A stretch of DNA of 64,000 nt, taken from Herbaspirillum sp. (GTDB taxonomy: Bacteria > Pseudomonadota > Gammaproteobacteria > Burkholderiales > Burkholderiaceae_D). Shown here piece by piece: positions 44,251-57,072 of the stretch; the stretch's first letter is position 1; each line of letters begins with the position of its first letter. Made by a program: the position numbers and the translations under genes. The stretch spans positions 7,766 through 71,765 of the forward strand of contig NZ_JAGIBI010000012.1 in NCBI RefSeq assembly GCF_017744395.1, read 5' to 3'. A model generated the notes under the pieces. It was not told the origin of the DNA, did not search any database, and was given only the letters and a program-made list of their open reading frames with translations.

Positions 44251-46974
44251 TTATTCTTCCGGCAAGTCGGGCTGCGCCTCCACCGGCAGCGTGAAACAGA
44301 CGGTAGCGCCTTGCCCCGGCTCTTGCGGCGCGATCCAGATGCGGCCCTGGTGGGCTTCGACGATGGCGCGGCAGATCGCCAGGCCGAGGCCGACGCCGGG
44401 CGTGCTGGACTCATTGTCGCCGCGCGTGAATTTTTCGAAAGCGTGCTGCGCCATCGCCGGCGGGAATCCGCGGCCGTGGTCGGACACGCTGACCTTGACC
44501 TGCTGCGCGCCGTCCAGCGTCTCGACATGGGCGGCGATGGCGATGGCGCTGCCCGGCGGCGAATACTTGGCCGCATTCTCCACCAGGTTGGAGAATACCC
44601 GTTCCAGCAGCACCGCATCGACCCGCAGCAGCGGCAAACCGGCCGGCAGGCGCACTTCGACCGAACGGCCTTCGAGCGTCTTTGACAGCAAGCGCAGCGC
44701 CGACCCCGCCACTTCCTCCAGCGCATTCCACTGGCGATTCAGCGTGACTGCGCCGGCCTGCAGGCGCGCCATGTCGAGCAGGTTGTTCATCAGGCCGACC
44801 ATCTTCTGCGACTGTTCACCGATAGTGCGCGCCATGGCGCGGGCATCCTCGTCCAGCCGGGGATTGGCGGCCAGCACGTCGGCGCTGCCGACCAGGGAAG
44901 TCAGCGGTGTGCGCAGGTCATGCGAGATGGCCGACAGCAGCGAGTTGCGCAGGCGTTCCGACTCCATGCTCACCAGCGCATCCTGCGCCACCTCGGCGTA
45001 ATGCAGGCGCTCGATGGCCATGGCGATCTGCGAGCAGAAGATTTCCAGCATCTGGCGGTTCTCGGGCAATGCCAGCTGTGCCGCGGCAAGCTGGCGCTCG
45101 TCCTCGCTGGCGCCTTCGATGGCGAAGGCCAGCACGCCGCGGGTGCGCATGGTGGCCGTCAGCGGCAGGTAAAGCGCGGCGGCCGAAGGCAGCGTGGCGG
45201 TGCCCTTGCCGGCCGGCTGGCCGTTGTCGTAGACCCATTGCGCCACCCCGGCATCGACGCTCTTGAGCACATGGGCGCCGCCCGCCTCCTGCTCCGGCTC
45301 GGCCAGATGCAGCTGGTTGGCGCTGTCGGGCAGGAAAAAGGCGATGCGCGCGCCGAACACCGCGGCCAGGTGGCGGCGGCCGATTTCCAGGATCTGGTCC
45401 AGCGTCAGCAGGGCCGACAATTCCTTGCCCAGCATGTACAGGTTGGAGGCGCGCGTCTCGCGCTGCATGGCCACGCTGGCCTGGCGCCGCAGCCTGGCGG
45501 TCAGCGAGCTGATGAACAGCGACACCGCCAGCATCACCAGCAGCGTCAGCAGGTATTGCACATCCGAGACCGAGATCGAAAACCGTGGATCGACGAAGAA
45601 GAAATCGAAGGACAGCACCGACAGCACCGACACCAGCGCCGAAGCCGAACGGCCATGGCGCATCGCCACCAGCATCACGCCGACCAGGTACAGCATGATG
45701 ACATTGGCCGGATGCAGGAAGTCGTTGAGCACGAAAGCCAGCGCGGTGGTGACGGCGCAACTGGCCACCGCCCAGGCATAGCCGCGTATGCGCCGACGGC
45801 GCGTGAGCAGGTCCTGCGCCGCATCGGCGACGGAATCTTCGCGGCTGTCGCCATCGCCGGCGGCGGTCCGGCTGCGGGCGACGGTATAGATGTCGACGCC
45901 TTCGCCCAGCGCGGCGATGCGCTTGGCCAGCCGGCCGCGCTGCTGGCCGATCACCAGCTTGCCCGCATTGCGGCTCTTGGTGAACTGCAGCAGCGCCGTG
46001 GCGAGTTCGTCGCCGCTGATGCTGGCGGTTTCCGCGCCCAGCGACTGCGCCAGCTTGAGATAGCCGAGCACGCGCTCGCGCCCGGCCAGCGCCTGGCTGC
46101 CATTGGCCAGGTCGACATGCACCGCCAGCCATTCGGCCTGCAGCTTGGCCGCCAGCCGCGCCGCCTCGCGGATCAGCCGCTCCTCGCCGGCACCGCTACC
46201 GACGGCCACCACGATGCGCTCGCGCGCCTGCCATAGCTGGGCGATGGAACGGTCGGCGCGGTACTCGCGCATGTCGGCATCGACCCGGTCGGCGGTGCGG
46301 CGCAAAGCGATCTCGCGCAGCGCGATCAGGTTGCCCTTGCGGAAGAAATTGCGCCCGGCCTTCTCGGCCTGCTGCGGCATATACACCTTGCCTTGCTTCA
46401 GGCGCGCCAGCAGTTCGTCGGGCGGGATGTCGACCAGCATGACGTCGTCGGCCTGGTCGAACACGTGGTCGGGCACGGTCTCGAACACGCGGATGCCGGT
46501 AATCTGGCCGACCACGTCGTTCAGGCTTTCGATGTGCTGGACGTTGAGGGTGGTGTAGACGTCGATGCCGGCTCGCAGCAGTTCGTCGATGTCCTGCCAG
46601 CGTTTGGCATGGCGCGAACCGGGCACGTTGGAATGGGCCAGTTCGTCCACCAGCATGACTTGCGGCTTGCGTTGCAGGGCGGCGTCGAGGTCGAACTCGG
46701 GGAGCAGGCGGTCGCGGTAGGCGACCTTTTTCATCGGCAGGCGTTCGATGCCTTGCAGTTGTTCCTCGGTCTCGCTGCGGCCGTGGGTTTCAACCACGCC
46801 GGCGACCACGTCGATGTTTTGCGCGCGCAGGACCTGGGCGGCTTCCAGCATGGCGAAGGTCTTGCCTACGCCTGCCGAAAAACCGAAAAAGACCTTCAGG
46901 CGGCCGCGGGATTGGCGGTCTTCCTCGCGCATTACGCGTTCGAGCAGGTCGTCGGGGTTGGGGCGGGTGGTCAT
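44251..46974 (-). CDS. kdpD: K+ sensor kinase
   Basis: GFSAGVGKT, VDELAHSN, LRELALR-type motif, USP, TM, GAF, ISHDLRTPL. Confidence 0.96.
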   Translation of the reverse strand: MTTRPNPDDLLERVMREEDRQSRGRLKVFFGFSAGVGKTFAMLEAAQVLRAQNIDVVAGVVETHGRSETEEQLQGIERLPMKKVAYRDRLLPEFDLDAALQRKPQVMLVDELAHSNVPGSRHAKRWQDIDELLRAGIDVYTTLNVQHIESLNDVVGQITGIRVFETVPDHVFDQADDVMLVDIPPDELLARLKQGKVYMPQQAEKAGRNFFRKGNLIALREIALRRTADRVDADMREYRADRSIAQLWQARERIVVAVGSGAGEERLIREAARLAAKLQAEWLAVHVDLANGSQALAGRERVLGYLKLAQSLGAETASISGDELATALLQFTKSRNAGKLVIGQQRGRLAKRIAALGEGVDIYTVARSRTAAGDGDSREDSVADAAQDLLTRRRRIRGYAWAVASCAVTTALAFVLNDFLHPANVIMLYLVGVMLVAMRHGRSASALVSVLSVLSFDFFFVDPRFSISVSDVQYLLTLLVMLAVSLFISSLTARLRRQASVAMQRETRASNLYMLGKELSALLTLDQILEIGRRHLAAVFGARIAFFLPDSANQLHLAEPEQEAGGAHVLKSVDAGVAQWVYDNGQPAGKGTATLPSAAALYLPLTATMRTRGVLAFAIEGASEDERQLAAAQLALPENRQMLEIFCSQIAMAIERLHYAEVAQDALVSMESERLRNSLLSAISHDLRTPLTSLVGSADVLAANPRLDEDARAMARTIGEQSQKMVGLMNNLLDMARLQAGAVTLNRQWNALEEVAGSALRLLSKTLEGRSVEVRLPAGLPLLRVDAVLLERVFSNLVENAAKYSPPGSAIAIAAHVETLDGAQQVKVSVSDHGRGFPPAMAQHAFEKFTRGDNESSTPGVGLGLAICRAIVEAHQGRIWIAPQEPGQGATVCFTLPVEAQPDLPEE

Positions 46975-46997
46975 TTTGAGGATGGTTTTAGAGCATT

Positions 46998-47723
46998 GTA
47001 GTCTGGTCTTGCTGCGTTCTGATGCTCTGGCTTTATTACTTGGTCTCTCCGGTCGAAAGGGAGCGCCGGGGGCGGCCCGGCAGCCGCTCACTTTCTTTGG
47101 CCCGCCAAAGAAAGTAAGCAAAGAAAACGGCCCCTAAGTGCCAGCCCTCCTGCGGAGGGTGCCCGTTGGAGCGCCATGAAAAATGGATCAGCGCGGCAGT
47201 CGGAGCGAAGCGACTCTGCCGAGCCCATTTTTCATGGCGCTCCAACGGCTGGCCCACAAGGGGAAATGCTTAAATGCCTCGCCTGCGGCATCGGGATTGG
47301 GATCGTGGTTCGCTATCTACTGTGGATTTGCCGGCGTCTTAACGACACTGGGTCCTGACTTTCGTCAGGACGACGCGTAGATGCGATAGCGATACACCGC
47401 ACCGATGCCGCAGGCGAGAAGCAAGCACCGCAATGCCGAAGGCGAGCCGTCTCCGCAGTCCGCTTCTGACCAGCCGCTGGAGCGAGGGGAAAAATGGATC
47501 AGAAAGGACGCCGGAGCGCAGCGACTTGCGGCCTTTCCCATTTTTCCCCTCGCTCCAGCGGGTACCCCGAAGGGGCTGGGCAGTAGCGGTCGCCTTCTTT
47601 TGCTTACTTTTCTTGGCGAGACAAGAAAAGTGAGCGGCTGCCGGGCCGCCCCCGGCGCTCACCTTCGACCGAAGAAAGATAAGCATAGAGCCAGTACACC
47701 GACACGCAGCAAGACCAGACTAC
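46998..47723. repeat. 726-bp nested palindromic element, copy 1
   Basis: perfect 20-bp terminal IR GTAGTCTGGTCTTGCTGCGT; mirrored internal modules; central CGTC-type REP hairpin at 47348-47375. Confidence 0.9.
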
Positions 47724-47736
47724 CCAAAAACCCAAA

Positions 47737-48339
47737 CTACTTAGCAGCCAAAGGCAAAGGCGCCACCTCATCCAAAGCCAAATTCAACTTCAACACATTA
47801 ACCCGAGCCTCCCCTAAAAACCCCCACTGCGGCGCCTCGGTATAAGTCCCAACCAACCCACGAACCAGCTCAACCCCAATCCCCCGAGCTCGAGCCACCC
47901 TCCCCACCTGATAATCCGCAGCCGCCGGACTGATATGCGGATCCAGCCCGCTACCGGAAGCCGTCAACAAATCGATAGGAACAGCCGGCCCGCCGCCAGC
48001 CTCGCGCAACACCTTGACCCGCTCCTCGGCAGCCTGCTTGAGCGCCGGATTGGTCGGCCCCAGATTGCTGCCGCCGGAAGCCATGCCGTTATTGGGAAAC
48101 TCGCCGCTAGCCGACGGCCGCCCCCAAAAATACCCGGCCCCGGAGAAATTCTCGCCGATCAGCTCAGAGCCAACCGCCACCCCGCCGCGCTCGATGATGC
48201 TGCCATTGGCCTGGCGCGGAAAGAAAGCCTGCGCCAGCCCGGTAACGACCGCCGGGTAAATGCCGCCGAGCACCACGCCCAACAGGATGAACAAGGTCAG
48301 CGCGGGACGCAGCGCATTATTCGAAAAAGGTGATTTCAT
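47737..48339 (-). CDS. kdpC: Kdp ATPase C chain
   Basis: [46 protein letters not shown]. Confidence 0.96.
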
Positions 48340-48366
48340 GATGTTTCCTTGAGAAGTCAGGATGGC

Positions 48367-50565
48367 TCAAACCAAGCCAAAGGCAGCCAGCAGCATGTCG
48401 ATCAACTTGATGCCGACAAACGGCACCAGCAACCCGCCCACGCCATAAATCAGCAGATTGCGCCGCAGCAGCACCGCCGCGCCCAGCGCGCGGTAAGGCA
48501 CGCCGCGCAGCGCCAGCGGAATCAGCGCGACGATCACCAGCGCATTGAAGATCACCGCCGACATGATGGCCGAGTCGGGGCTGGCCAGATGCATCACGTT
48601 CAACGCGCCCAATTGCGGATAGGTCGCAACGAACATGGCCGGAATGATGGCGAAATACTTGGCCACATCGTTGGCGATGCTGAAGGTGGTCAGGCTGCCG
48701 CGCGTCATCAGCATCTGCTTGCCGATCTCAACGATCTCGATCAGCTTGGTCGGGTTGCTGTCGAGGTCGACCATGTTGCCGGCTTCCTTGGCGGCCTGGG
48801 TGCCGCTGTTCATGGCCACCGCCACATCGGCCTGGGCCAGCGCCGGGGCGTCGTTGGTGCCGTCGCCGGTCATCGCCACCAGCTTGCCTTCGGCCTGGTG
48901 CTGGCGGATCAGCGCCAGCTTCTGCTCCGGCGTGGCTTCAGCCAGGAAGTCGTCGACGCCAGCCTCGGCGGCGATGGCGGCGGCGGTCAGGCGGTTGTCG
49001 CCGGTGATCATCACGGTCTTGATGCCCATGCGGCGCAGCTCGCTGAAGCGCTCCTTGATGCCGCCCTTGACGATGTCCTTCAGTTCCACCGTGCCGAGGA
49101 TGCGGATCGGCGCGCCGTTATGGACCGCTTCGGCATCGCTATGCCACTCCGCCACCACCAGCGGCGTGCCGCCGCGGCGGGCGATCGCTTCGATATCGGT
49201 TTCGACCTGGTTCGGCAGGCGCTGGTCGGCTTGCCGCGCCAGCTTGCGGATGGCGTCGGCCGCGCCCTTGCGAATGCGGCGCGCGCCGAGGTCGATGCCG
49301 GAGACGCGGGTCTGGGCCGAGAACGGGATGAATTGCGCGCCCATGCCCGCCATTTCGCGTTCGCGCAGGTTGAAGCGGTTCTTGGCCAGCACCACGATGC
49401 TGCGGCCTTCCGGCGTCTCGTCGGCCAGCGATGCCAGTTGCGCGACATCGGCCAGCTCGCGCTCGGACACGCCCGGCGCCGGCAGGAAGGCGGCGGCCTG
49501 GCGGTTGCCCAGCGTGATGGTGCCGGTCTTGTCCAGCAGCAGCACGTCGACGTCGCCGGCGGCTTCCACCGCGCGGCCGGAGGTGGCGATCACGTTGGCC
49601 TGCATCATGCGGCTCATGCCGGCCACGCCGATGGCCGACAGCAGGCCGCCGATGGTGGTCGGGATCAGGCAGACCAGCAGCGCGATCAGGGCGGTGACCG
49701 TGACCGGCGCGCCAGCGCCGGCAGCCGTAACCGAGAATTGCGAGAACGGCAGCAGGGTCACCGTCACCAGCAGGAACACGATGGTCAGCGCCACCAGCAG
49801 CAGCGTGAGCGCGAGTTCGTTGGGCGTCTTCTGGCGGCGCGCGCCTTCGACCATGGCGATCATGCGGTCGAGGAAGGCTTCGCCCGGGTTGACCGAGACG
49901 CGCACGACGATCCAGTCCGACAACACCCGGGTACCGCCGGTCACGGCCGAGAAGTCGCCGCCGGATTCGCGGATCACCGGGGCTGATTCGCCGGTGATGG
50001 CGCTCTCGTCCACGGTGGCGACGCCTTCGATGACGTCGCCGTCGGCCGGCACGGTGTCGCCGGCTTCGATCAGCACCAGGTCGCCTTTGCGCAAGGAGCC
50101 GCCCTCCACCACTTCACACTGGTCATGGCTGACGCCGGCGCCGCGCACCAGCTCGGCGCGGCGCAGCTTCTTGGCCAGCACGCTTTTCTTGACGCCGCGC
50201 AGCGCCGCCGCCTGGGCCTTGCTGCGGCCCTCGGCCAGCGCTTCGGCGAAGTTGGCGAACAGCACCGTGAACCACAGCCAGGCGGCGATGGCGAAGATGA
50301 AGCCGGCCGGCGCCTCGCCCTTGGACACCAGCGCCTGGATGAACAGCAGCGTGGTCAGGATGCTGCCGAGGTAGACCACGAACATCACCGGGTTGCGCCA
50401 CTGCACGCGCGGCGACAGCTTGCGGAAAGAGTCGACCAGTGCCGGCTTGACGATCCTGGGATCGAACATCCAGCGCGCGGTCTGCGCGGCGGACGGTATC
50501 GCATCCGATGCCGCAGCGGCGCCGGACGGAGTATGGGAGGAAGGAGTAGTCATATCAGTATCCAT
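48367..50565 (-). CDS. kdpB: Kdp ATPase B chain
   Basis: [37 protein letters not shown]. Confidence 0.97.
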
Positions 50566-50568
50566 TTT

Positions 50569-52350
50569 TTACATCGCCATCATTTGCAGATGCTCGACCA
50601 CCGGACCCAGCGCCAGCGCCGGGACATAGGTCAGCGCACCGACCAGGATCACCGCGCCGATCAGCAGGGCCACAAACAGCGGGCCGTGCGTGGGCAAGGT
50701 GCCGGAAGTCGCGGCCAGCCGCTTCTTGCCGGCCAGCGAGCCGGCCATCGCCAGTACCGGGACGATGATCCCGAAGCGGCCCAGCCACATGGCGATGCCG
50801 GTGGTGATGTTGTAGTACGGCGTGTTGGCAGAAAGCCCGGCGAAGGCGCTGCCGTTGTTGTTGGCGGCCGAACTGAAGGCGTACAGGATTTCGGAGAAGC
50901 CGTGCGCGCCGGGGTTGGCGATGCCGGCCAGGCCGCTCTCCACCATCACCGAGACGGCGGTGAAGATCAGCACCAGCGCCGGCGTCATCAAGATGGCGAT
51001 CGACATCATCTTCATGTCGAACACGCCGATCTTCTTGCCCAGGTATTCCGGCGTGCGGCCGATCATCAGGCCGGCGATGAACACCGCCAGCACGGCGAAG
51101 ATCAGCATGCCGTACAGGCCGGCGCCGACGCCGCCGTAGACCACCTCGCCCAGCTGCATCTGCAGCATCGGCACCAGCCCGCCCAGCGGCGAGAGCGAAT
51201 CATGCATGGCATTGACCGCGCCGCAGGAAGCGGCCGTGGTGATGGCGGCGAACAGGCTGGAAGCGATGATGCCGAAGCGGGTTTCCTTGCCTTCCATCAT
51301 GCCGGGGCCGGAGGCGTGCAGCGACGCCAGCATGGGGTTGGGCTGCGATTCGAAATACATGATCGTCAGCGTCATCGCCGCGAACAGGATGGTCATCGCC
51401 GCCAGGATGGCCCAGCCCTGGCGGCGGTCGCCGACCAATACGCCGAAGCTGGTACACAGCGCGGCGGGGATGATCAGGATCGCCAGCATCTCCAGGAAGT
51501 TGGACAATGGGGTCGGGTTCTCGTACGGGTGTGCCGAATTGGCGTTGAAGAAGCCGCCGCCGTTGGTGCCCAGCATCTTGATCGCTTCCTGCGAGGCGAC
51601 CGGCCCCATCGGCAGGATCTGCTTATCGGTGCTCTTGGCCTCGACCACCGGCTCGCCCTTGGCATCCTTCATCGGCTGGCCCGCGGCGTCCAGCTTGGGC
51701 GTCGTGTAGTGGGTCGTTTCCAGCGTCTTCACTTCCTGGTAGGGCTTGAAGTTCTGGATGCTGCCCTGCTGCACCAGCGCCAGCGCCAGGACCACCGACA
51801 GCGGCAGCAGCACGTACAGCGAGGAGCGCAGCATGTCGACCCAGAAGTTGCCGATGCTCTTGCTGCTGTGGCGGGCGAAGCCACGGATCAGCGCGAAGGC
51901 GATGGCGATGCCGGTGGCGGCCGAGACGAAGTTCTGCACCGCCAGCGCCACCATCTGCGTCAGGTAGCTCATGGTGGACTCGCCCACGTAGCCTTGCCAG
52001 TTGGTGTTGGCGACGAAACTGATTGCGGTGTTGAACGAGGAATCGACGCCGACGTTGCCCAGTGCCTGCGGGTTCAGCGGCAGCCATTGCTGCACGCGCT
52101 GCAGGGCGTAGACGAACAGCAGGCCGAGCAGGTTGAACAGCACCGCGGCGATGGCGTATTGCTTCCAGTCCATCTCGGCATCGCGCTGGATGCCGCACAG
52201 GCGGCACAGCACGCGCTCCACGCCGCCGAAGATACGGTTGATTGCCGATTTCCCTTCCATCACGTGCGCGATGTAGCCGCCCAGCGGTACCGACAGCACC
52301 AGCAGGATGGCGAGATAGAGGGCTAGTTGGAGATAGGCGTTGCCGTCCAT
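50569..52350 (-). CDS. kdpA: Kdp ATPase A chain
   Basis: NTNWQGY, LGTNGGGFF, SCGAVN, NNGSAFAG. Confidence 0.97.
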   Translation of the reverse strand: MDGNAYLQLALYLAILLVLSVPLGGYIAHVMEGKSAINRIFGGVERVLCRLCGIQRDAEMDWKQYAIAAVLFNLLGLLFVYALQRVQQWLPLNPQALGNVGVDSSFNTAISFVANTNWQGYVGESTMSYLTQMVALAVQNFVSAATGIAIAFALIRGFARHSSKSIGNFWVDMLRSSLYVLLPLSVVLALALVQQGSIQNFKPYQEVKTLETTHYTTPKLDAAGQPMKDAKGEPVVEAKSTDKQILPMGPVASQEAIKMLGTNGGGFFNANSAHPYENPTPLSNFLEMLAILIIPAALCTSFGVLVGDRRQGWAILAAMTILFAAMTLTIMYFESQPNPMLASLHASGPGMMEGKETRFGIIASSLFAAITTAASCGAVNAMHDSLSPLGGLVPMLQMQLGEVVYGGVGAGLYGMLIFAVLAVFIAGLMIGRTPEYLGKKIGVFDMKMMSIAILMTPALVLIFTAVSVMVESGLAGIANPGAHGFSEILYAFSSAANNNGSAFAGLSANTPYYNITTGIAMWLGRFGIIVPVLAMAGSLAGKKRLAATSGTLPTHGPLFVALLIGAVILVGALTYVPALALGPVVEHLQMMAM

Positions 52351-52351
52351 G

Positions 52352-52441
52352 TCAGAACTCCTCCGGCTTGATCAGGGCGTACACCAGGTACGCCAGCAGG
52401 CCGACCGAAACGGCCAGGCCGAGCAAGGTCATGGCGTTCAT
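52352..52441 (-). CDS. kdpF: Kdp ATPase F peptide (29 aa)
   Basis: LLAYLVYALIKPEEF signature. Confidence 0.93.
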   Translation of the reverse strand: MNAMTLLGLAVSVGLLAYLVYALIKPEEF

Positions 52442-52551
52442 TTCTTGTCGCCCTCCTGCCGTTCGAGGCGGCTGCACAGGGCGATGAAGCCCCACATCGA
52501 GGCGCCGCACAAGAGCAGCATGCCTACATAGAGAAAATCGGTTTGCCACAT
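52438..52551 (-). CDS. 37-aa hydrophobic ORF coupled to kdpF
   Basis: MWQTDFLYVGMLLLCGASMWGFIALCSRLERQEGDKK; GGAG upstream; TGA overlaps the kdpF ATG. Confidence 0.7.
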   Translation of the reverse strand: MWQTDFLYVGMLLLCGASMWGFIALCSRLERQEGDKK

Positions 52552-52611
52552 TTCCCACTCCATTGTTTGCGTTGTTCGATCCGTTCCGCATGCGGAATCG
52601 GAGACAGTCCA

Positions 52612-52676
52612 ACGATAGGCGGATGGGCGTTAAATCCTGGTAAAACTATGGGGATGGGGTGTAAACAGGATGTAAA
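52612..52676 (-). promoter_or_regulatory. KdpE-binding sites and -10 of the kdpFABC promoter
   Basis: GTTTACATCCTGTTTACACCCC resembles the E. coli KdpE box (TTTACACCCC); second tandem site; TATCGT -10. Confidence 0.8.
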
Positions 52677-52754
52677 CAGGCGCCGGCAGCCGGCCTGGGG
52701 AAAACCGGAGCGGCACTGGATTGGCGAGATGAAGGGAAATGCGGAAAGGCGGGA

Positions 52755-54914
52755 TCAGACGTCGGTGATCTTGGCCACATGCACCCGGTCCTTGCCCAGG
52801 CGCTTGGCGGCGTACATCGCCTTGTCGGCCATGGCCAGCAGTTCTTCCGGCCCGGTCTCGCCATCCTCGTCGGGGAGGTAGACGGCCACGCCGATGCTGC
52901 TGGAGACATTGATGCGCGAATGCGTCAGCTCGAACGGTTCGCGTATGGCATTGAGGATCTTTTCGGCCACGTTGACCGCATCCTGCTGGGTCTGCAACTT
53001 TTCCAGGATCACCACGAACTCGTCGCCGGCCAGCCGCGACACGGTGTCGACGTCGCGCACCGAATCCTGCAGGCGCCGGGTGAACTGGACCAGCAGCTCA
53101 TCGCCGGCCTCGTGGCCGTAACGGTCGTTGACGCCCTTGAAGCCGTCGATGTCCATGAAGAACAGCGCCATCGGCTCATGCGCACGGCGCGCGCGCATCA
53201 TCGCTTCGGGCAGGCGGTCGGAGAAGGCGCGGCGGTTGGGCAGGCCGGTCAGCATGTCGGTCAGCGCCAGCTCGCGCATCTGGTCGCGGAAGGCCAGCCG
53301 TTCGGTGATGTCGTGCAGGAAGGCGATGAACAGGTGCCCGCTGTGGCGCTTGACGTGGCCGACCGTGATCTCGACCGGCAGTTCGTGGCCGTCATGGTGC
53401 AGGGCCTGCAGTTCGATACGGTTGTTGATGACCACGCTGGCGCCGGTTTCGAGGAATTCCTTCATGCCCCGGTAGTGGGCCTCGCGCATGTCCTGCGGGA
53501 TGATCAGCTCGGCCATCTTGCGGCCCACCGCCTCGGTGCGCATCCAGCCCAGCAGCAGTTCGGCCTGGCGGTTCCATTCGACGATCACGCCCTGCTCGTC
53601 GGCGGCGATGAAAGCATCCTGGGCGTTCTCCAGGATCGCGCGCAGTTCGTCGGCGGTTTCTTCCAGCTTGATCTGGTTGGCGTGCTGCACGTCCAGCGAC
53701 TGCTGCAGCGCCATGGCGGTTTCATGCAGGCGGCTGGTGCGCTCGGCGACCCGCTGTTCCAGGCTTTCGTTGAGCGAACGCATTTCGCGCAGGTAGGTTT
53801 CTTCCCGCTCCACCATGTTGACCAAGCTCGCCGACAGCAACTGCACTTCGCGGTAGCTGTTGACCAGCGGGATAGGCACGTCCTGCGCCCCGGCGCCGCG
53901 CAGCTCCAGCGCCGCGCTCAAGGCATTGACCGGTCCCACCAGGCGGCGCGTGAGCGCATAGGCCAGGATCACCAGCACCGCGCCGATTAGCGCGCCGACC
54001 ATGATCACCCGACGCTCCAGGCTATGGAAGGCTTCCAGCGCGATATGCTCGGGCTGGCGCACGATCACGCTCCAGTTGGGCATCATGCTGCTGCCCTGGC
54101 CGGTGCGCGAAAAGCCGGTGATGTAGCGGCGGCCGTCAGGCCATGCTTCCAGCACGACGCCGCCGTCCTGCGATTTTTGCGAAGCGGTGAAGCTGGCGGT
54201 GGCGATCTTCCGTTCTTCGAGTTCCTTGGGACCGAGTATCACGGTGCCGTCGGCGCGCACGACCATGACTTCGACGCCATACCGGTCGCCGGCCGGATTG
54301 ATCAGCTTGGTCGCGATCTCGCGCGCCCAGGTCCAGGAGAGATGGATGCCGACCACGCCGATAAAGCGCCCCTGCACGTCCTGCACCGGCGCGGAGAGAT
54401 CGACGAAGCGCCAGGGTTCCGGCTGCTGCGGCAGCTTCGGCTCCAGCAGGATGGCGGGATGGTAATCGCCGGAATAGAAATGGCTCCGGCCTTCCTTGAA
54501 CCATGGGCGCTCAGCCACGCTCTGGCCTTCAAGCACACCGTTGGTCGCCGCCAATACCGTGCCGTCGGGAGCGGCCATGCCGATCCAGGCGTAGTTGGGA
54601 ACATTGGCCTGCAAGTCGTTGAAGACGTCGCGCATATGCGGCACATCCTTGCCGGCACGGACGGACGGTCGCGCCACCAGGATGCGCAAATCGATCTGGC
54701 GCTCGGCCATGCTGCGCTCCAGCGCCTCCTGCATCTGCCAGGCGATCTGCTTGAGGCGAGTCTCCGCTTCCGAGCGCGCGTAGCCCCGGGTGAACTGATC
54801 CACCAGGATCAGCACCGACACGGTCGTGATCAGCACGGTAACGACCACCCCCATCGTGATCAGCGATGACAGATTCGGAGGAGATGGGACTTTTTTGTTA
54901 TTCAATTGGGACAA
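52755..54914 (-). CDS. dCache-HAMP-PAS diguanylate cyclase
   Basis: 2 TMs flanking Cache, PAS, DMLTGLPNR, RDVD I-site, AGDEF active-site variant. Confidence 0.9.
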   Translation of the reverse strand: MSQLNNKKVPSPPNLSSLITMGVVVTVLITTVSVLILVDQFTRGYARSEAETRLKQIAWQMQEALERSMAERQIDLRILVARPSVRAGKDVPHMRDVFNDLQANVPNYAWIGMAAPDGTVLAATNGVLEGQSVAERPWFKEGRSHFYSGDYHPAILLEPKLPQQPEPWRFVDLSAPVQDVQGRFIGVVGIHLSWTWAREIATKLINPAGDRYGVEVMVVRADGTVILGPKELEERKIATASFTASQKSQDGGVVLEAWPDGRRYITGFSRTGQGSSMMPNWSVIVRQPEHIALEAFHSLERRVIMVGALIGAVLVILAYALTRRLVGPVNALSAALELRGAGAQDVPIPLVNSYREVQLLSASLVNMVEREETYLREMRSLNESLEQRVAERTSRLHETAMALQQSLDVQHANQIKLEETADELRAILENAQDAFIAADEQGVIVEWNRQAELLLGWMRTEAVGRKMAELIIPQDMREAHYRGMKEFLETGASVVINNRIELQALHHDGHELPVEITVGHVKRHSGHLFIAFLHDITERLAFRDQMRELALTDMLTGLPNRRAFSDRLPEAMMRARRAHEPMALFFMDIDGFKGVNDRYGHEAGDELLVQFTRRLQDSVRDVDTVSRLAGDEFVVILEKLQTQQDAVNVAEKILNAIREPFELTHSRINVSSSIGVAVYLPDEDGETGPEELLAMADKAMYAAKRLGKDRVHVAKITDV

Positions 54915-55307
54915 ATTGCGGCGATACGGGCAAGTGCATGACGGTTCCCCCCTGAGAGCCGCGCTCGTTGTTTACATGGCATCTTGCCAGAACGTTCACA
55001 TTTTTTCATCGGCTTTAATCAAAAGTACGACAAATATTTTTCCGGGGGGAAAGCGGTGTGGGCGAGTATATCCATCAATACGAGCACGGTGGAAACGGAT
55101 GCGGGCAACATGCCGGAGATAGGCGCGAAATCTCAAACAATGGGAAATTCTGTGAGGAGGGGGCGGTGCAAAAAGACAACGAACGCGGGATGGAGGGGGG
55201 GGGGCTGCCGTCAGTTGGGGATGGGATGGTGGTGCGCCGATGTTTTCTTGGCGTTGAAGTTGGAGTTGAAGCAAGGCAACATCTCTGGATTGCTTGGGTT
55301 GTTCTGG

Positions 55308-56048
55308 GCAGTCTGGTCTTGCTGCGTGCAGATGTACTGGCTCTATGCTTTTCTTTCTCCGGTCGAAGCGGAGCGCCGGGGGCGGCCCGGCAGCCGCTCA
55401 CTTTCTTTGGCCCGCCAAAGAAAGTAAGCAAAGAAAACGGCCCCTAAGTGCCAGCCCCTTCGGGGTACCCGTTGGAGTGCGCTGAAAAATGGGAAAGGCC
55501 GCAAGTCGCTTCGCTCCGGCGTCCTTTCTGATCCATTTTTCAGCGCACTCCAACGGCTGGCCCACAAGGGGAAATGCTTAAATGCCTCGCCTTCGGCATC
55601 GGGATTGGGACCGTGGTTCGCTATCTTCTGCGGCTTTGCTAACGTCTTAACGACACTGGGTCCTGACTTTCGTCAGGATGACGCGTAGATGCGATAGCGA
55701 TCAAAAACACCGAAGCCGCAGGCGAGATGCAAGCACCGCAAGGCCGAAGGCGAGCCGTCTCCGCAGTCCGCTTCTGACCAGCCGCTGGAATGAGGGGAAA
55801 AATGGATCAGAAAGGACGCCGGAGCGCAGCGACTTGCGGCCTTTCCCATTTTTCCCCTCATTCCAGCGGGAACCCCGAAGGGGCTGGTTAGTAGCCTTGT
55901 TGGAGCAGTGCTCCAACCCTTCTTTTGCTTACTTTTCTTGGCGAGACAAGAAAAGTGAGCGGCTGCCGGGCCGCCCCCGGCGCTCCCTCCCGACCGAAGA
56001 AAGATAAGTATAGAGCCAGTACATCTGCACGCAGCAAGACCAGACTAC
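55308..56048. repeat. 741-bp nested palindromic element, copy 2 (same orientation as copy 1)
   Basis: terminal IR of about 41 bp with 1 mismatch; 55370-55457 identical to 47060-47147; central REP hairpin at 55656-55683. Confidence 0.9.
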
Positions 56049-56061
56049 CTATACCACCACA

Positions 56062-57072
56062 TTAAACAACAGCACTACGCTCCAACTGATCCCGAACCTC
56101 AGCCACAATCTCAAACGAATACAACCGCGCTGCATGATCATAAATCTGCGCAGTAATCATCAACTCATCCGGCGCCATCTCGTCAATAAAGTTCTGCAAC
56201 CCCTCACGCACGGACTCCCGATCCCCCACCACGGCACAAGCCAGCGACCGCTCCACATGCGTCTGCTCCCCCGGCTGCCAGTAATCGGCGATATCGTCCA
56301 CCGGCGGATTCAACTGTCCCGGCGTCCCCCGGATCAGGTTGATGAACTGCTGCTGCAGCGAACTGAACAGGCGCACCGCCTCGCGGTCGGTATCGGCGGC
56401 GAACACGTTCAGGCCCAGCATCACATACGGCTTTTGCAGAGCGGCTGACGGCTTGAAGCGGGCCCGGTAGATCTCCACCGCCGACTTCATGAAGCCCGGC
56501 GCGAAATGCGAGGCGAAGGCGAACGGCAGGCCCATCTCAGCCGCCAGTTGGGCACTGAACATGCTTGACCCCAGCAGCCAGATCGGCACGTTCAGGCCGG
56601 CCCCCGGCACCGCCCGCAGCGGCTGGTAGTCGGATGGCCCGGCGAAATAATCCTGCAGCTCCTGCACGTCCTGCGGAAAATTCTCGGCAGTGTCGCCGCC
56701 CATGTGGCGGCGCAACGCGCGGGCGGTGCGCTGATCCGAGCCGGGCGCGCGCCCCAGGCCGAGATCGATGCGGCCGGGATAGAGCGACTCCAGCGTGCCG
56801 AACTGCTCGGCGATCACCAGCGGCGAATGGTTGGGCAGCATGATGCCGCCGGAGCCGACACGGATGCTTTGGGTATTGGCCGCCACATGCGAGATCACCA
56901 GTGAAGTCGCGGCGCTGGCGATGCCGGCCATGTTGTGGTGCTCGGCCAGCCAGTAGCGCCGGTAGCCGAGTTTTTCGGCCAGTTGCGCCAGTTCCTTGGT
57001 GTTGTTGAAGGCCTGGGCGGCGGTGCTGCCCTTGTTGATCGGGGACAGGTCTAGGACGGAAAACGGAATCAT
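56062..57072 (-). CDS. LLM-class (luciferase-like, YhbW-type) monooxygenase
   Basis: [36 protein letters not shown]. Confidence 0.92.

Follow-up and report, generated by a model that had tools for sequence, protein, structure and literature searches.

In a window of 64,000 nucleotides from Herbaspirillum sp., we have identified two copies of a repeat element, each bordered by about 300–600 bases of normal host sequence, coding as well as non-coding, where one strand is poor in cytosine and rich in G and T. The C-poor strand is the one that runs 5′ to 3′ towards the element. Our comparison of homologous sites shows this "halo" to be a mutational scar which, on the evidence of base composition, the element has put on the host DNA beside it. 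As the initial annotation of this DNA had supposed, a strand-specific scar of this local kind seems to be new for bacteria; no description of similar halos was found in the literature searched.

The element and the halo beside it

The element is built of GTAG-ended units of about 380 nt (range 320–405 nt), with several nested hairpins, in which only the inner end is REP-sized; the terminus ...CCAGACTAC|CCAA is common to 19 ends. Both copies in the window are dimers (Table 1), and all dimers, 5 in the genome holding the window (G000; coordinates count from the first letter of the window) and 20 in four other genomes, carry their GTAG ends outward, while tandem arrays are present in the genome G019. 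Copy 1 is 87–92% identical to other genomic copies and has inverted repeats with 125-nt arms (82% complementary), with nested hairpins in addition; folded as ssDNA, half of it reaches −100 to −104 kcal/mol (z about −8). A strong ssDNA structure is predicted for both strands of the unit, and a strand-specific hairpin stability was rejected, as the two strands fold equally. An Rfam search over 46500–56600 returned chance microRNA-like matches only, well under threshold.

Table 1. Element copies, halos and neighbouring genes in the window
Feature	Coordinates	Strand	Description
Halo left of copy 1 (weaker)	46700–46997	plus C-poor	kdpD 5′ end and 23-nt spacer; GC skew +0.21 at 46900–47099 (200-nt windows)
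kdpD start codon	46974–46972		gene reads away from element; Pfam KdpD match
Element copy 1	46998–47723	.	726-nt head-to-head dimer of two ~380-nt units
GTAG end of copy 1	46998–47001		outward
Central REP hairpin of copy 1	47350–47372		CGTC-type
CTAC end of copy 1	47720–47723		outward
Halo right of copy 1	47724–48339	minus	13-nt A/C-rich spacer and whole kdpC; GC skew −0.50 at 47700–47899 (200-nt windows)
kdpC	47737–48339	minus	CDS
Cache-PAS-GGDEF gene	52755–54914	minus	reads away from copy 2
Halo left of copy 2	55000–55307	plus G/T-rich	non-coding, upstream of Cache-PAS-GGDEF gene; GC skew +0.33 to +0.43 at 55000–55299, peak +0.43 at 55100–55299 (200-nt windows)
G10 run	55195–55204		within halo left of copy 2
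Element copy 2	55308–56048	.	741-nt head-to-head dimer; 87.5% identical to copy 1
Left end of copy 2	55308–55311		GCAG, a GTAG variant
Central REP of copy 2	55658–55679		
Right end of copy 2	56045–56048		CTAC
Halo right of copy 2	56049–56650	minus	13-nt spacer and 3′ part of LLM gene; GC skew −0.37 at 56000–56299 (200-nt windows)
LLM gene	56062–57069	minus	CDS, luciferase-like monooxygenase

The halo was found at 19/19 element ends of G000 and at all 76 flanks pooled from six Herbaspirillum genomes, with the polarity that the initial annotation had read from the window; every dimer has a C-poor plus strand to its left and a C-poor minus strand to its right. Over the 76 flanks, outward-strand A+C excess is fitted by 0.035 + 0.42*exp(−x/179 nt), i.e. 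a length constant of about 180 nt, so that the reported fading over a few hundred bp, with intact proteins, is borne out by this decay and by the Pfam matches.

The signal is most readily seen in the genes to the right of the two copies. The replication fork arrives at copy 1 from the kdpC side, where the coding strand is C-poor and G/T-rich; at third positions the last 60 codons of kdpC hold C1, G35 and T22, with 1 C-ending codon vs 19–27 in nine congeners without the element. In the LLM gene, whose coding strand is C-poor as well, the corresponding figures are C4, G31 and T24, vs C19–28 in 28 congeners without the element. Against 2890 ORFs of the same genome serving as gene-end control (mean 26.5 C-ending codons in the last 60, sd 5.8, minimum 5), these counts correspond to z = −4.4 and z = −3.9, and C depletion is thus not general at element-free gene ends. 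The earlier hand counts proved exact for kdpC (1/60 last codons C-ending vs 19/40 at 48181–48300, Leu being TTG 7 times and Gly GGG 7/7) and for LLM (0/32 and 4/72 last codons, 9/20 at 56341–56400). In the last 70 codons of kdpC, 36/66 conserved C sites were lost (21 C>T, 13 C>G and 2 C>A), while the protein is intact, its Pfam KdpC match spanning 1–182 of 182 positions; with elements 228–303 nt distant, C loss is intermediate. In LLM, polarised changes affected conserved C sites at 16/32 within 150 nt (14 of them C>T), at 10/46 between 150 and 300 nt and at 2/42 between 300 and 450 nt, with 2/32 and 4/36 in controls. To the left of copy 2 the outward-strand A+C excess is 0.33 in the first 150 nt, and the kdpD side had rightly been called weaker (0.17 vs 0.49), with 0.17, 0.16 and 0.17 in successive 150-nt bins.

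At both kdpC and LLM, no skew is seen in orthologous sites that lack the element. In G019, LLM has a unit 61 nt downstream of it, yet the gene end shows no halo (C25), which indicates that the halo is neither a precondition of insertion nor instantaneous. The converse case was found at one site, where scarred gene ends abut without an element in three species (G000, G042 and G052); G045 is unscarred at this site, and the element was seen there in none of the genomes. A scar without its element would imply seamless excision, as by HUH transposases. Where halos are shared by two species, divergence inside them is only slightly raised, as would be expected if the free sites were already saturated.

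Other element families with halos were sought by a genome-wide scan for switches from G/T-rich to A/C-rich sequence, allowing gaps of 0–1600 nt between the two sides. Only these elements ranked at the top and strong double halos in the genome lie only at them, weaker matches being equally frequent in reversed polarity and other extreme-composition windows being mostly low-complexity coding sequence. Solitary REP hairpins (n = 27) showed almost no halo.

Mutation spectrum and selection

Among the polarised changes C>T predominates; C>G is found chiefly at GpC (14/21, p = 3e-5), and there is some A>G, so both the C-to-T and the C-to-G changes proposed initially are present. The 5′ base of the C>T changes is T in 10 cases, C in 8, A in 6 and G in 2, and at kept C sites T in 8, C in 6, A in 4 and G in 6; there is no preference except that G is avoided, and the changes do not follow the APOBEC-type TpC context. 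The concentration of C>G at GpC argues against simple deamination and would need an extra step, e.g. abasic-site bypass with misalignment. Dinucleotide odds ratios of the halo resemble those of the genome, and selection against RAYT C|T cleavage sites was considered and rejected, the CT dinucleotide not being specifically depleted.

Synonymous C has been lost nearly everywhere, while C at first and second codon positions was mostly kept, and some amino-acid replacements run in the same direction (T>M, H>Y, A>V, I>V). Saturated free sites together with kept proteins point to many small events under selection and not to bursts, which speaks against this part of the kataegis-like signature suggested in the initial annotation. 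To judge by the sequences, the halo is a sustained mutation pressure filtered by purifying selection, with synonymous and non-coding sites nearly emptied of C.

Replication direction and the origin of the halo

In single units, the GTAG end faces the oncoming fork at 30/30 loci of seven complete genomes and at a further 5/5 in G000, and this tie between element orientation and replication is a new observation. Replication direction in G019 was taken from the position of dnaA, since the skew of short loci is too noisy. A strong halo lies on the fork-facing (GTAG) side of single units only; in G019 the excess per 100 nt is +0.24/+0.22/+0.10 on this side and +0.06/+0.09/+0.02 on the far side. As the GTAG end faces the fork, the G/T-rich halo strand of single units is the lagging-strand template, with the sign of the genome-wide skew at about 10 times its strength. 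Dimers, by contrast, have halos on both sides, which are symmetric in the 20 dimers of four other genomes, the halo of the far GTAG end being as strong as that of the near one. Thus the C-poor strand is the lagging-strand template at all single units and on the near side of dimers, but not on their far side. A stronger near side in dimers, seen at 4/5 in G000, was dismissed with 7/20 in further dimers. It should be noted that all single units share one orientation, so that "fork-facing side" and "GTAG end" are confounded.

The explanation that we favour, tentatively and at slightly below even confidence, was drawn from composition: replication would leave single-strand gaps 5′ of a structure that blocks synthesis, and cytosines in them would deaminate. 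Once unwound, the ~380-nt unit and the palindromic dimers would fold into very stable hairpins, and DNA synthesis would stall where the folded template must be crossed; the stalled synthesis would be the Okazaki fragment on the lagging-strand template and, with long palindromes, also the leading strand before re-priming. In most rounds of replication, a few hundred nucleotides of template 5′ of the block may then remain unpaired, allowing cytosines and, more slowly, adenines to deaminate in the gap, and gap filling would fix the change. In single units only the lagging-strand template beside the GTAG end would be exposed, leading to a one-sided halo, while dimers would block both templates and acquire halos on both sides. 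The symmetric dimer halos fit the hairpins that perfect palindromes reportedly form on both leading and lagging strands (PMC4245961). As both strands of the unit fold equally, a one-sided halo requires the assumption that folding is completed in time on the lagging-strand template alone. Okazaki fragments in E. coli are spaced at 1–2 kb. The 180-nt halo decay is shorter than this spacing, which counts against such gaps, and so does the strength of the far-end halo in dimers, which a GTAG-end-specific nick would predict as well.

The initial annotation had proposed that the DNA is repeatedly nicked or broken where the element ends, with 5′-to-3′ resection and deamination of the 3′-ended strand; in a more specific version considered here, a REP-associated tyrosine transposase (RAYT) bound at the GTAG end would cut nearby ssDNA. 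The polarity on which this rested stands, and the symmetric halos at 20 dimers fit it too, as does the way in which strength tracks the GTAG end: on the far side, which is a GTAG end in dimers and a REP end in single units, the halo is strong in the former and weak in the latter. A candidate enzyme is available: G000 has one Y1_Tnp gene at C5:587614–588336 (78.1 bits vs NF047646, cut-off 80), and the RAYT-like gene occurs in one copy each in 43/44 genomes of the genus, 7 exceeding the NF047646 cut-off. In vitro, the E. coli enzyme TnpA-REP cleaves ssDNA in cis at C|T sites across more than 400 nt around a BIME (PMC3333891). The seamless excision suggested by the element-free scar is what HUH transposases perform, and RecC was searched for and not found, so RecBCD is probably absent. 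Yet a two-ended break would give two sides, whereas the halo of single units is one-sided and their orientation fixed relative to replication, and HUH enzymes cut ssDNA only, which makes equal cutting at the far end of dimers hard to picture. The hairpin cutter SbcCD was searched for and not found, which fits the tolerance of near-perfect palindromes of 600–1280 nt in these genomes and argues against hairpin cleavage. An AddAB-like pair was found, and as enzymes of this class digest the two strands as far as Chi, the single-stranded stretch would start away from the break. On the affected strand, CT dinucleotides show no specific depletion, and no element matches were found within about 1.5 kb of the RAYT-like gene in seven genomes. 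We regard nicks or breaks as possible but somewhat unlikely, less so at the palindromic dimers, and the replication-coupled gap accounts for more of the data than break and resection.

A putative enzyme recruited to the element, either a cytosine deaminase or an error-prone polymerase filling patches outward, would turn it into a natural targeted mutator. This could account for the very strong effect (third-position C falling from about 25 to 1–4 per 60 codons), for the mix of C>T and C>G, which resembles deaminase action followed by abasic-site bypass, and for the GpC to GpG neighbour effect, which looks like a polymerase misalignment error. We consider it quite unlikely, as the C>T changes have no preferred 5′ base apart from the avoidance of G, and as it predicts neither the replication-linked orientation nor the one-sided halo. 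Transcription is a still less likely source: where genes read toward the element, RNA polymerase may stall at the hairpins and the non-template strand deaminate in R-loops, and both kdpC and LLM do read toward it, with a C-poor, G-rich non-template strand. However, all 76 flanks have the halo regardless of the neighbouring gene, non-coding flanks too, and this idea is largely refuted by flanks whose genes read away, namely kdpD, the GGDEF upstream region and the gene with its start at G000 C9:234848 (excess 0.43/0.33). These cases were checked by eye, automatic calls of neighbour-gene orientation being error-prone (kdpC was mis-called). Least credible of all is a halo without mutation pressure, due to a selected composition (e.g. 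C-rich, G-poor RNA read outward, for Rho loading), insertion into pre-skewed DNA or an assembly artefact. The outward strand is indeed C-rich and G-poor, as known Rho-utilisation sites are, but an origin of this kind is contradicted by the unskewed empty orthologous sites, by the G019 unit near LLM and by a scar that seems to outlast loss of the element; dozens of synonymous sites per flank, and the amino-acid changes, would each need selection, and the same pattern recurs in independent assemblies of at least 10 species with reading frames intact.

Perhaps each element is a built-in site at which, nearly every time the DNA is replicated, a single strand is exposed or cut, and an element-bound enzyme (the conserved single-copy RAYT-like nuclease, or a recruited deaminase or polymerase) would act in cis over several hundred nt. 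We find this rather doubtful. If true, each copy would be a natural local mutator reshaping the neighbouring genes, and past insertions could be dated and mapped from their scars, also where the element has departed.

Significance and comparison with known systems

If the halo is such a scar, a small non-coding repeat can alter codon choice in its neighbours, and some of their amino acids too, over hundreds of bases, an effect currently not credited to mobile elements. The halo would offer a natural time-integrated readout of single-stranded DNA in living bacteria, making the encounter of replication with a stable hairpin, and the duration of the gap, testable at defined loci. Element-free scars would allow the detection of past insertions and seamless excisions, and scans of codon usage, horizontal transfer or selection could misread halo stretches. 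Finding no SbcCD together with dozens of stable long palindromes suggests that repair-gene content may be linked to palindrome tolerance.

The element shares GTAG/CTAC ends with the GTAG-tagged REP/BIME/REPIN and RAYT systems and with IS200/IS605 (PMC3733652, PMC3333891, PMC3116915, PMC5027513). Like the former it contains a CGTC-type REP and occurs as head-to-head dimers and in tandem arrays, and one RAYT-like gene per genome is found here; the orientation of single units tied to the lagging-strand template and the apparently seamless loss recall the IS200/IS605 type. The REP/REPIN repeat unit is 20–40 nt, however, against 320–400 nt in the Herbaspirillum element, whose RAYT-like gene lacks flanking elements, and a mutational halo was not reported in the REP/BIME/REPIN, RAYT and IS200/IS605 literature examined. 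Long palindromes in E. coli (PMC4245961, PMC3315005) resemble the near-perfect palindromes of 600–1280 nt in that template-strand hairpins are expected in replication; there SbcCD removes or cleaves them, whereas here, where it was not found, they are stable, numerous and conserved across species.

As in kataegis of yeast and human cancers (PMC6786661, PMC3521656), C changes, both C>T and C>G, are coordinated on the 3′-ended strand, with a change of affected strand at a central point. Kataegis, however, consists of single somatic events, usually by APOBEC at TpC, whereas the halo has no TpC preference, is fixed in species and shared between them, saturated, filtered by selection and, in single units, tied to replication direction. 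The C>T/A>G gradients of the vertebrate mitochondrial H strand (PMC8565317) likewise involve deamination-type transitions that scale with single-stranded time in replication, but they extend over the whole organelle genome as the replication mode dictates, and do not form a local halo around a repeat. Finally, replication strand skew, with deamination of the lagging-strand template, shares with the halo an excess of G over C and of T over A on that template, and at single units the sign equals that of the local genome skew. Yet genome skew here is 0.02–0.05 across whole replichores, against 0.4–0.5 in a halo that decays over about 180 nt beside one repeat family, and the far-side halo of dimers is opposite to it in sign.

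Composition of the DNA flanking the elements

Both elements of the window, each of about 730 nt, are head-to-head dimers of a unit of approximately 320–400 nt. A REP hairpin of the CGTC type (GGGTCCTGACTTTCGTCAGGAC) marks one end of the unit, the interior holds nested long hairpins, and the opposite end reads ...GCAGCAAGACCAGACTAC followed by CCAA, i.e. it ends in CTAC (GTAG on the complementary strand). As ssDNA the unit has a predicted folding energy of -100 to -104 kcal/mol (z about -8) on either strand, and an Rfam search of the element region returned no family match. The window belongs to a Herbaspirillum genome (G000), which contains dimers and single units (5 of each) as well as several copies truncated by contig ends. 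The family is spread across the whole genus, and matching termini occur, for example, in the species H. robiniae and H. chlorophenolicum and in two others. Tandem arrays are found in the congener G019, where 3–5 units are repeated in a single orientation within each replichore, with a period of 470–500 nt that contains a second conserved module of about 120 nt with two more hairpins.

The initial annotation had claimed an element-linked loss of C in the adjacent gene ends, and recounting gave the identical figures. In kdpC, 1 of the last 60 codons ends in C, versus 19 of 40 at 48181–48300; within those 60, TTG encodes Leu 7 times and every Gly codon (7/7) is GGG. In the luciferase-like monooxygenase (LLM) gene, 0 of the final 32 and 4 of the final 72 codons end in C, returning to 9/20 at 56341–56400. 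The gene identities are supported by Pfam, the KdpC model being matched end to end. Such a loss is not shared by gene 3′ ends at large; in 2890 control ORFs of G000 C-ending codons per final 60 number 26.5 ± 5.8 (minimum 5), to which kdpC and LLM stand at z = -4.4 and -3.9, and the claimed link survives this comparison.

This halo, in which the strand whose 3′ end points toward the element is C-poor and G/T-rich, was measured as A+C excess on the strand read outward. At 19/19 ends in G000, the first 50 nt outward from CTAC have a mean composition of A 0.41, C 0.33, G 0.13 and T 0.135, reaching A 0.17, C 0.34, G 0.33 and T 0.165 by about 600 nt. The excess over the first 150 nt is 0.16–0.53 at every one of them, against a background of mean 0 and sd 0.12 in genome-wide 100-nt windows. 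The halo is also present at 13 termini of four other species, at 17 loci of G019 and on both sides of 20 dimers (40 flanks) in four additional complete genomes, the pooled flanks being positive in 76/76, with loci of related species partly non-independent. Their excess follows 0.035 + 0.42*exp(-x/179 nt), and a weak tail extends as far as about 900 nt. A genome-wide scan for switch points from G/T-rich to A/C-rich DNA placed only these elements in its top ranks, lower-ranked hits being equally common in the opposite polarity, and solitary REP hairpins (n=27) have nearly no halo (+0.06 upstream). At two loci A/C microsatellites directly follow the CTAC end, which suggests that slippage has added to the base bias, and a G10 run within the halo on the left of copy 2 may be a slippage-prone tract made by the mutation bias.

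Coordinates of the elements, neighbouring genes and related sites
Feature	Location	Strand	Remark
Element copy 1	window 46998–47723		GC skew +0.21 left, -0.50 right
Element copy 2	window 55308–56048		GC skew +0.43 left, -0.37 right
kdpC	window 47737–48339	minus	right of copy 1
LLM gene	window 56062–57069	minus	right of copy 2
GGDEF gene start	window 54914		
G10 run	window 55195–55204		about 280 nt upstream of GGDEF gene start
Microsatellite flank	L014, ~7252 onward	minus	(CAACA)n, (CCA)n at L014/L015
Microsatellite flank	L015, ~1651 onward		
Tandem array, example	G019:C1, L030 2376–5010		
Single unit beside LLM	G019:C1:3923559–3923939		L058 / L037
Element remnant	G007:C1:1331449–1331498		50 nt, between kdpC and kdpD
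Deaminase-family scar	G000 C8, ~86200–86620		L104/L107; gene ends near 86464
Second scar candidate	G000 C5:384900–385408		L106; L023
gyrB/parE-like gene end	G000 C8:95750–96310		
Gene reading away from element	G000 C9:234848 (start)		
AddAB-like pair	G000 C6:600400–606200		
SbcD-like match	G000 C6:387460–387711		about 600 nt from the next unit
Single unit	G000 C6:388294–388698		

Element-free sites and the spectrum of changes

At the third positions of the final 60 kdpC codons, nine congeners that carry no element between kdpC and kdpD show C19–27 and T3–8, versus C1 G35 T22 in G000, and two congeners with elements 228–303 nt off are intermediate (C10–12). A distant congener retains a remnant of the element between these two genes, whose junction may be a site of old or repeated insertion. 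Similarly, the final 60 codons of LLM hold C19–28 in 28 element-free congeners versus C4 G31 T24 in G000. In G019 a single unit lies 61 nt past the LLM stop codon, yet the gene end is normal (C25/60); the skew is therefore neither a prerequisite for insertion nor made at insertion. This unit may be a young insertion, which could help to calibrate the build-up of the halo.

A scar lacking any element was found at the end of a deaminase-family gene (C1/60 third positions). The convergent neighbour of this gene has the mirror-image composition, and hardly any spacer and no element separate the two. The scar is common to the two closest species (G042 and G052, C3 and C1), and G045, of equal gene order, has C25 and no scar. 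A second candidate, also element-free, is a G/T-rich gene end with C12/60, and in H. chlorophenolicum CPW301 an element lies directly past the orthologous stop codon. Taken together, the element-free orthologous sites and the scar show that the halo is caused by the element. Elsewhere in G000, a gyrB/parE-like gene end with 5/60 C-ending codons adjoins a low-GC stretch of about 550 nt unmatched to the element family.

With the nine element-free congeners as ancestor proxy, conserved C was lost at 36/66 sites in the final 70 kdpC codons (21 C>T, 13 C>G and 2 C>A) and one change only was toward C; ancestral states are majority proxies at 8–25% divergence, and some C>G are possibly multi-step. 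LLM was polarised with six closer outgroups and distances were counted from the stop codon. Conserved C changed in G000 at 16/32 sites within 0–150 nt (14 C>T, 2 C>G; controls 2/32 and 4/36, p = 1e-5), at 10/46 within 150–300 nt and at 2/42 within 300–450 nt. A comparison with closer species added A>G on the affected strand, and the amino-acid replacements in LLM (T>M, H>Y, A>V, I>V) go in the same direction. C>T has no 5′ base preference and C>G is enriched at GpC (14/21 vs 2/26 for C>T; p = 3e-5, or 2e-4 in four-fold codons); GGG and GGT are of roughly equal rarity genome-wide. In the halo genes synonymous C is almost all lost and constrained C is kept, therefore the halo has probably formed through many events under purifying selection and not in a single burst.

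Orientation relative to replication and origin of the halo

Replication direction was taken from the dnaA position as origin in complete genomes and from regional GC skew in G000. Single units have their GTAG end toward the oncoming fork at 30/30 loci outside G000, some of them possibly orthologous: 14 loci with 40 copies in G019 ('+' at 3.35–4.72 Mb, '-' at 1.15–1.88 Mb), 7 in G007, 4 in G043, 2 in G022 and 1 each in G046, G047 and G058. By regional skew the same holds for 5/5 in G000. In the main halo of single units, the lagging-strand template is thus the strand rich in G and T. This fixed orientation agrees with published descriptions of single-strand transposition into the lagging-strand template (PMC5027513, PMC3971601). 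In G019 the excess is +0.24/+0.22/+0.10 per 100 nt on the fork-facing side (positive in 17/17) and +0.06/+0.09/+0.02 on the far side, at the REP end. Dimers have their GTAG ends outward without exception and about equal halos on both sides (means: near 0.35/0.12, far 0.32/0.21; near > far in 7/20). The fork in the window travels toward lower coordinates, therefore kdpC and LLM lie on the near side of their elements.

The polarity of the halo fits any process in which the strand lying 5′ of the element becomes single-stranded. Transcription or R-loops are a very unlikely cause, as halos lie beside genes reading away (kdpD, the GGDEF gene upstream region and a gene on contig C9) and in non-coding DNA, and none of the flanks was without one. 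Insertion preference or selection on composition is contradicted by the empty sites, the halo-free LLM unit of G019 and the element-free scar, and the recurrence of the halo in separately assembled genomes from many species, together with intact reading frames, rules out an assembly artefact. A break or nick at the element, making the flanking DNA single-stranded, stays alive: halo strength in dimers tracks the GTAG end, one gene resembling a REP-associated tyrosine transposase is kept in 43/44 genomes, and E. coli TnpA-REP cuts ssDNA in vitro between C and T over >400 nt around a BIME (PMC3333891). Nevertheless, the CT dinucleotide is not depleted and the transposase-like gene has no flanking elements within about 1.5 kb in seven genomes.

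By inference, replication-coupled gaps are the origin that we favour. An Okazaki fragment that starts past the element on the lagging-strand template would halt at the folded unit, and the flank that it was due to cover would stay single-stranded; on the leading-strand template the polymerase might stall and re-prime downstream, chiefly at long palindromes. Deamination of cytosine proceeds much more rapidly in ssDNA than in duplex DNA. Cytosines exposed in the gap could become U, which gap filling would fix as T; speculatively, GpC could be converted to GpG if U were removed and the resulting abasic site bypassed with misalignment. Such gaps would explain why the halo is one-sided at single units and two-sided at dimers, and would also account for its sign versus the genome skew and for its absence at small REPs. 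Neither SbcCD nor RecC was detected in G000 (99.8% complete; RecC as PF04257, SbcD as PF12320, TIGR00619 at 29.6 bits only) and an AddAB-like pair is present, which fits the survival of palindromes of 600–1280 nt and weakens a hairpin-cleavage model; the missing RecC and SbcD may be the reason why long palindromes are tolerated. The sole weak SbcD-like (metallophosphatase) match in the genome lies near a single unit, probably by coincidence.

Comparison with known systems

Our literature search found no report of such a halo. It shares its chemistry and asymmetry with replication skew, with the ssDNA gradient of mitochondria and with kataegis where breaks are resected. The novelty lies in the setting: the halo is steep, local, evolutionarily fixed and tied to every copy of a bacterial repeat, its strength suffices to strip gene ends of third-position C and to alter amino acids, and it apparently outlasts the loss of the element.
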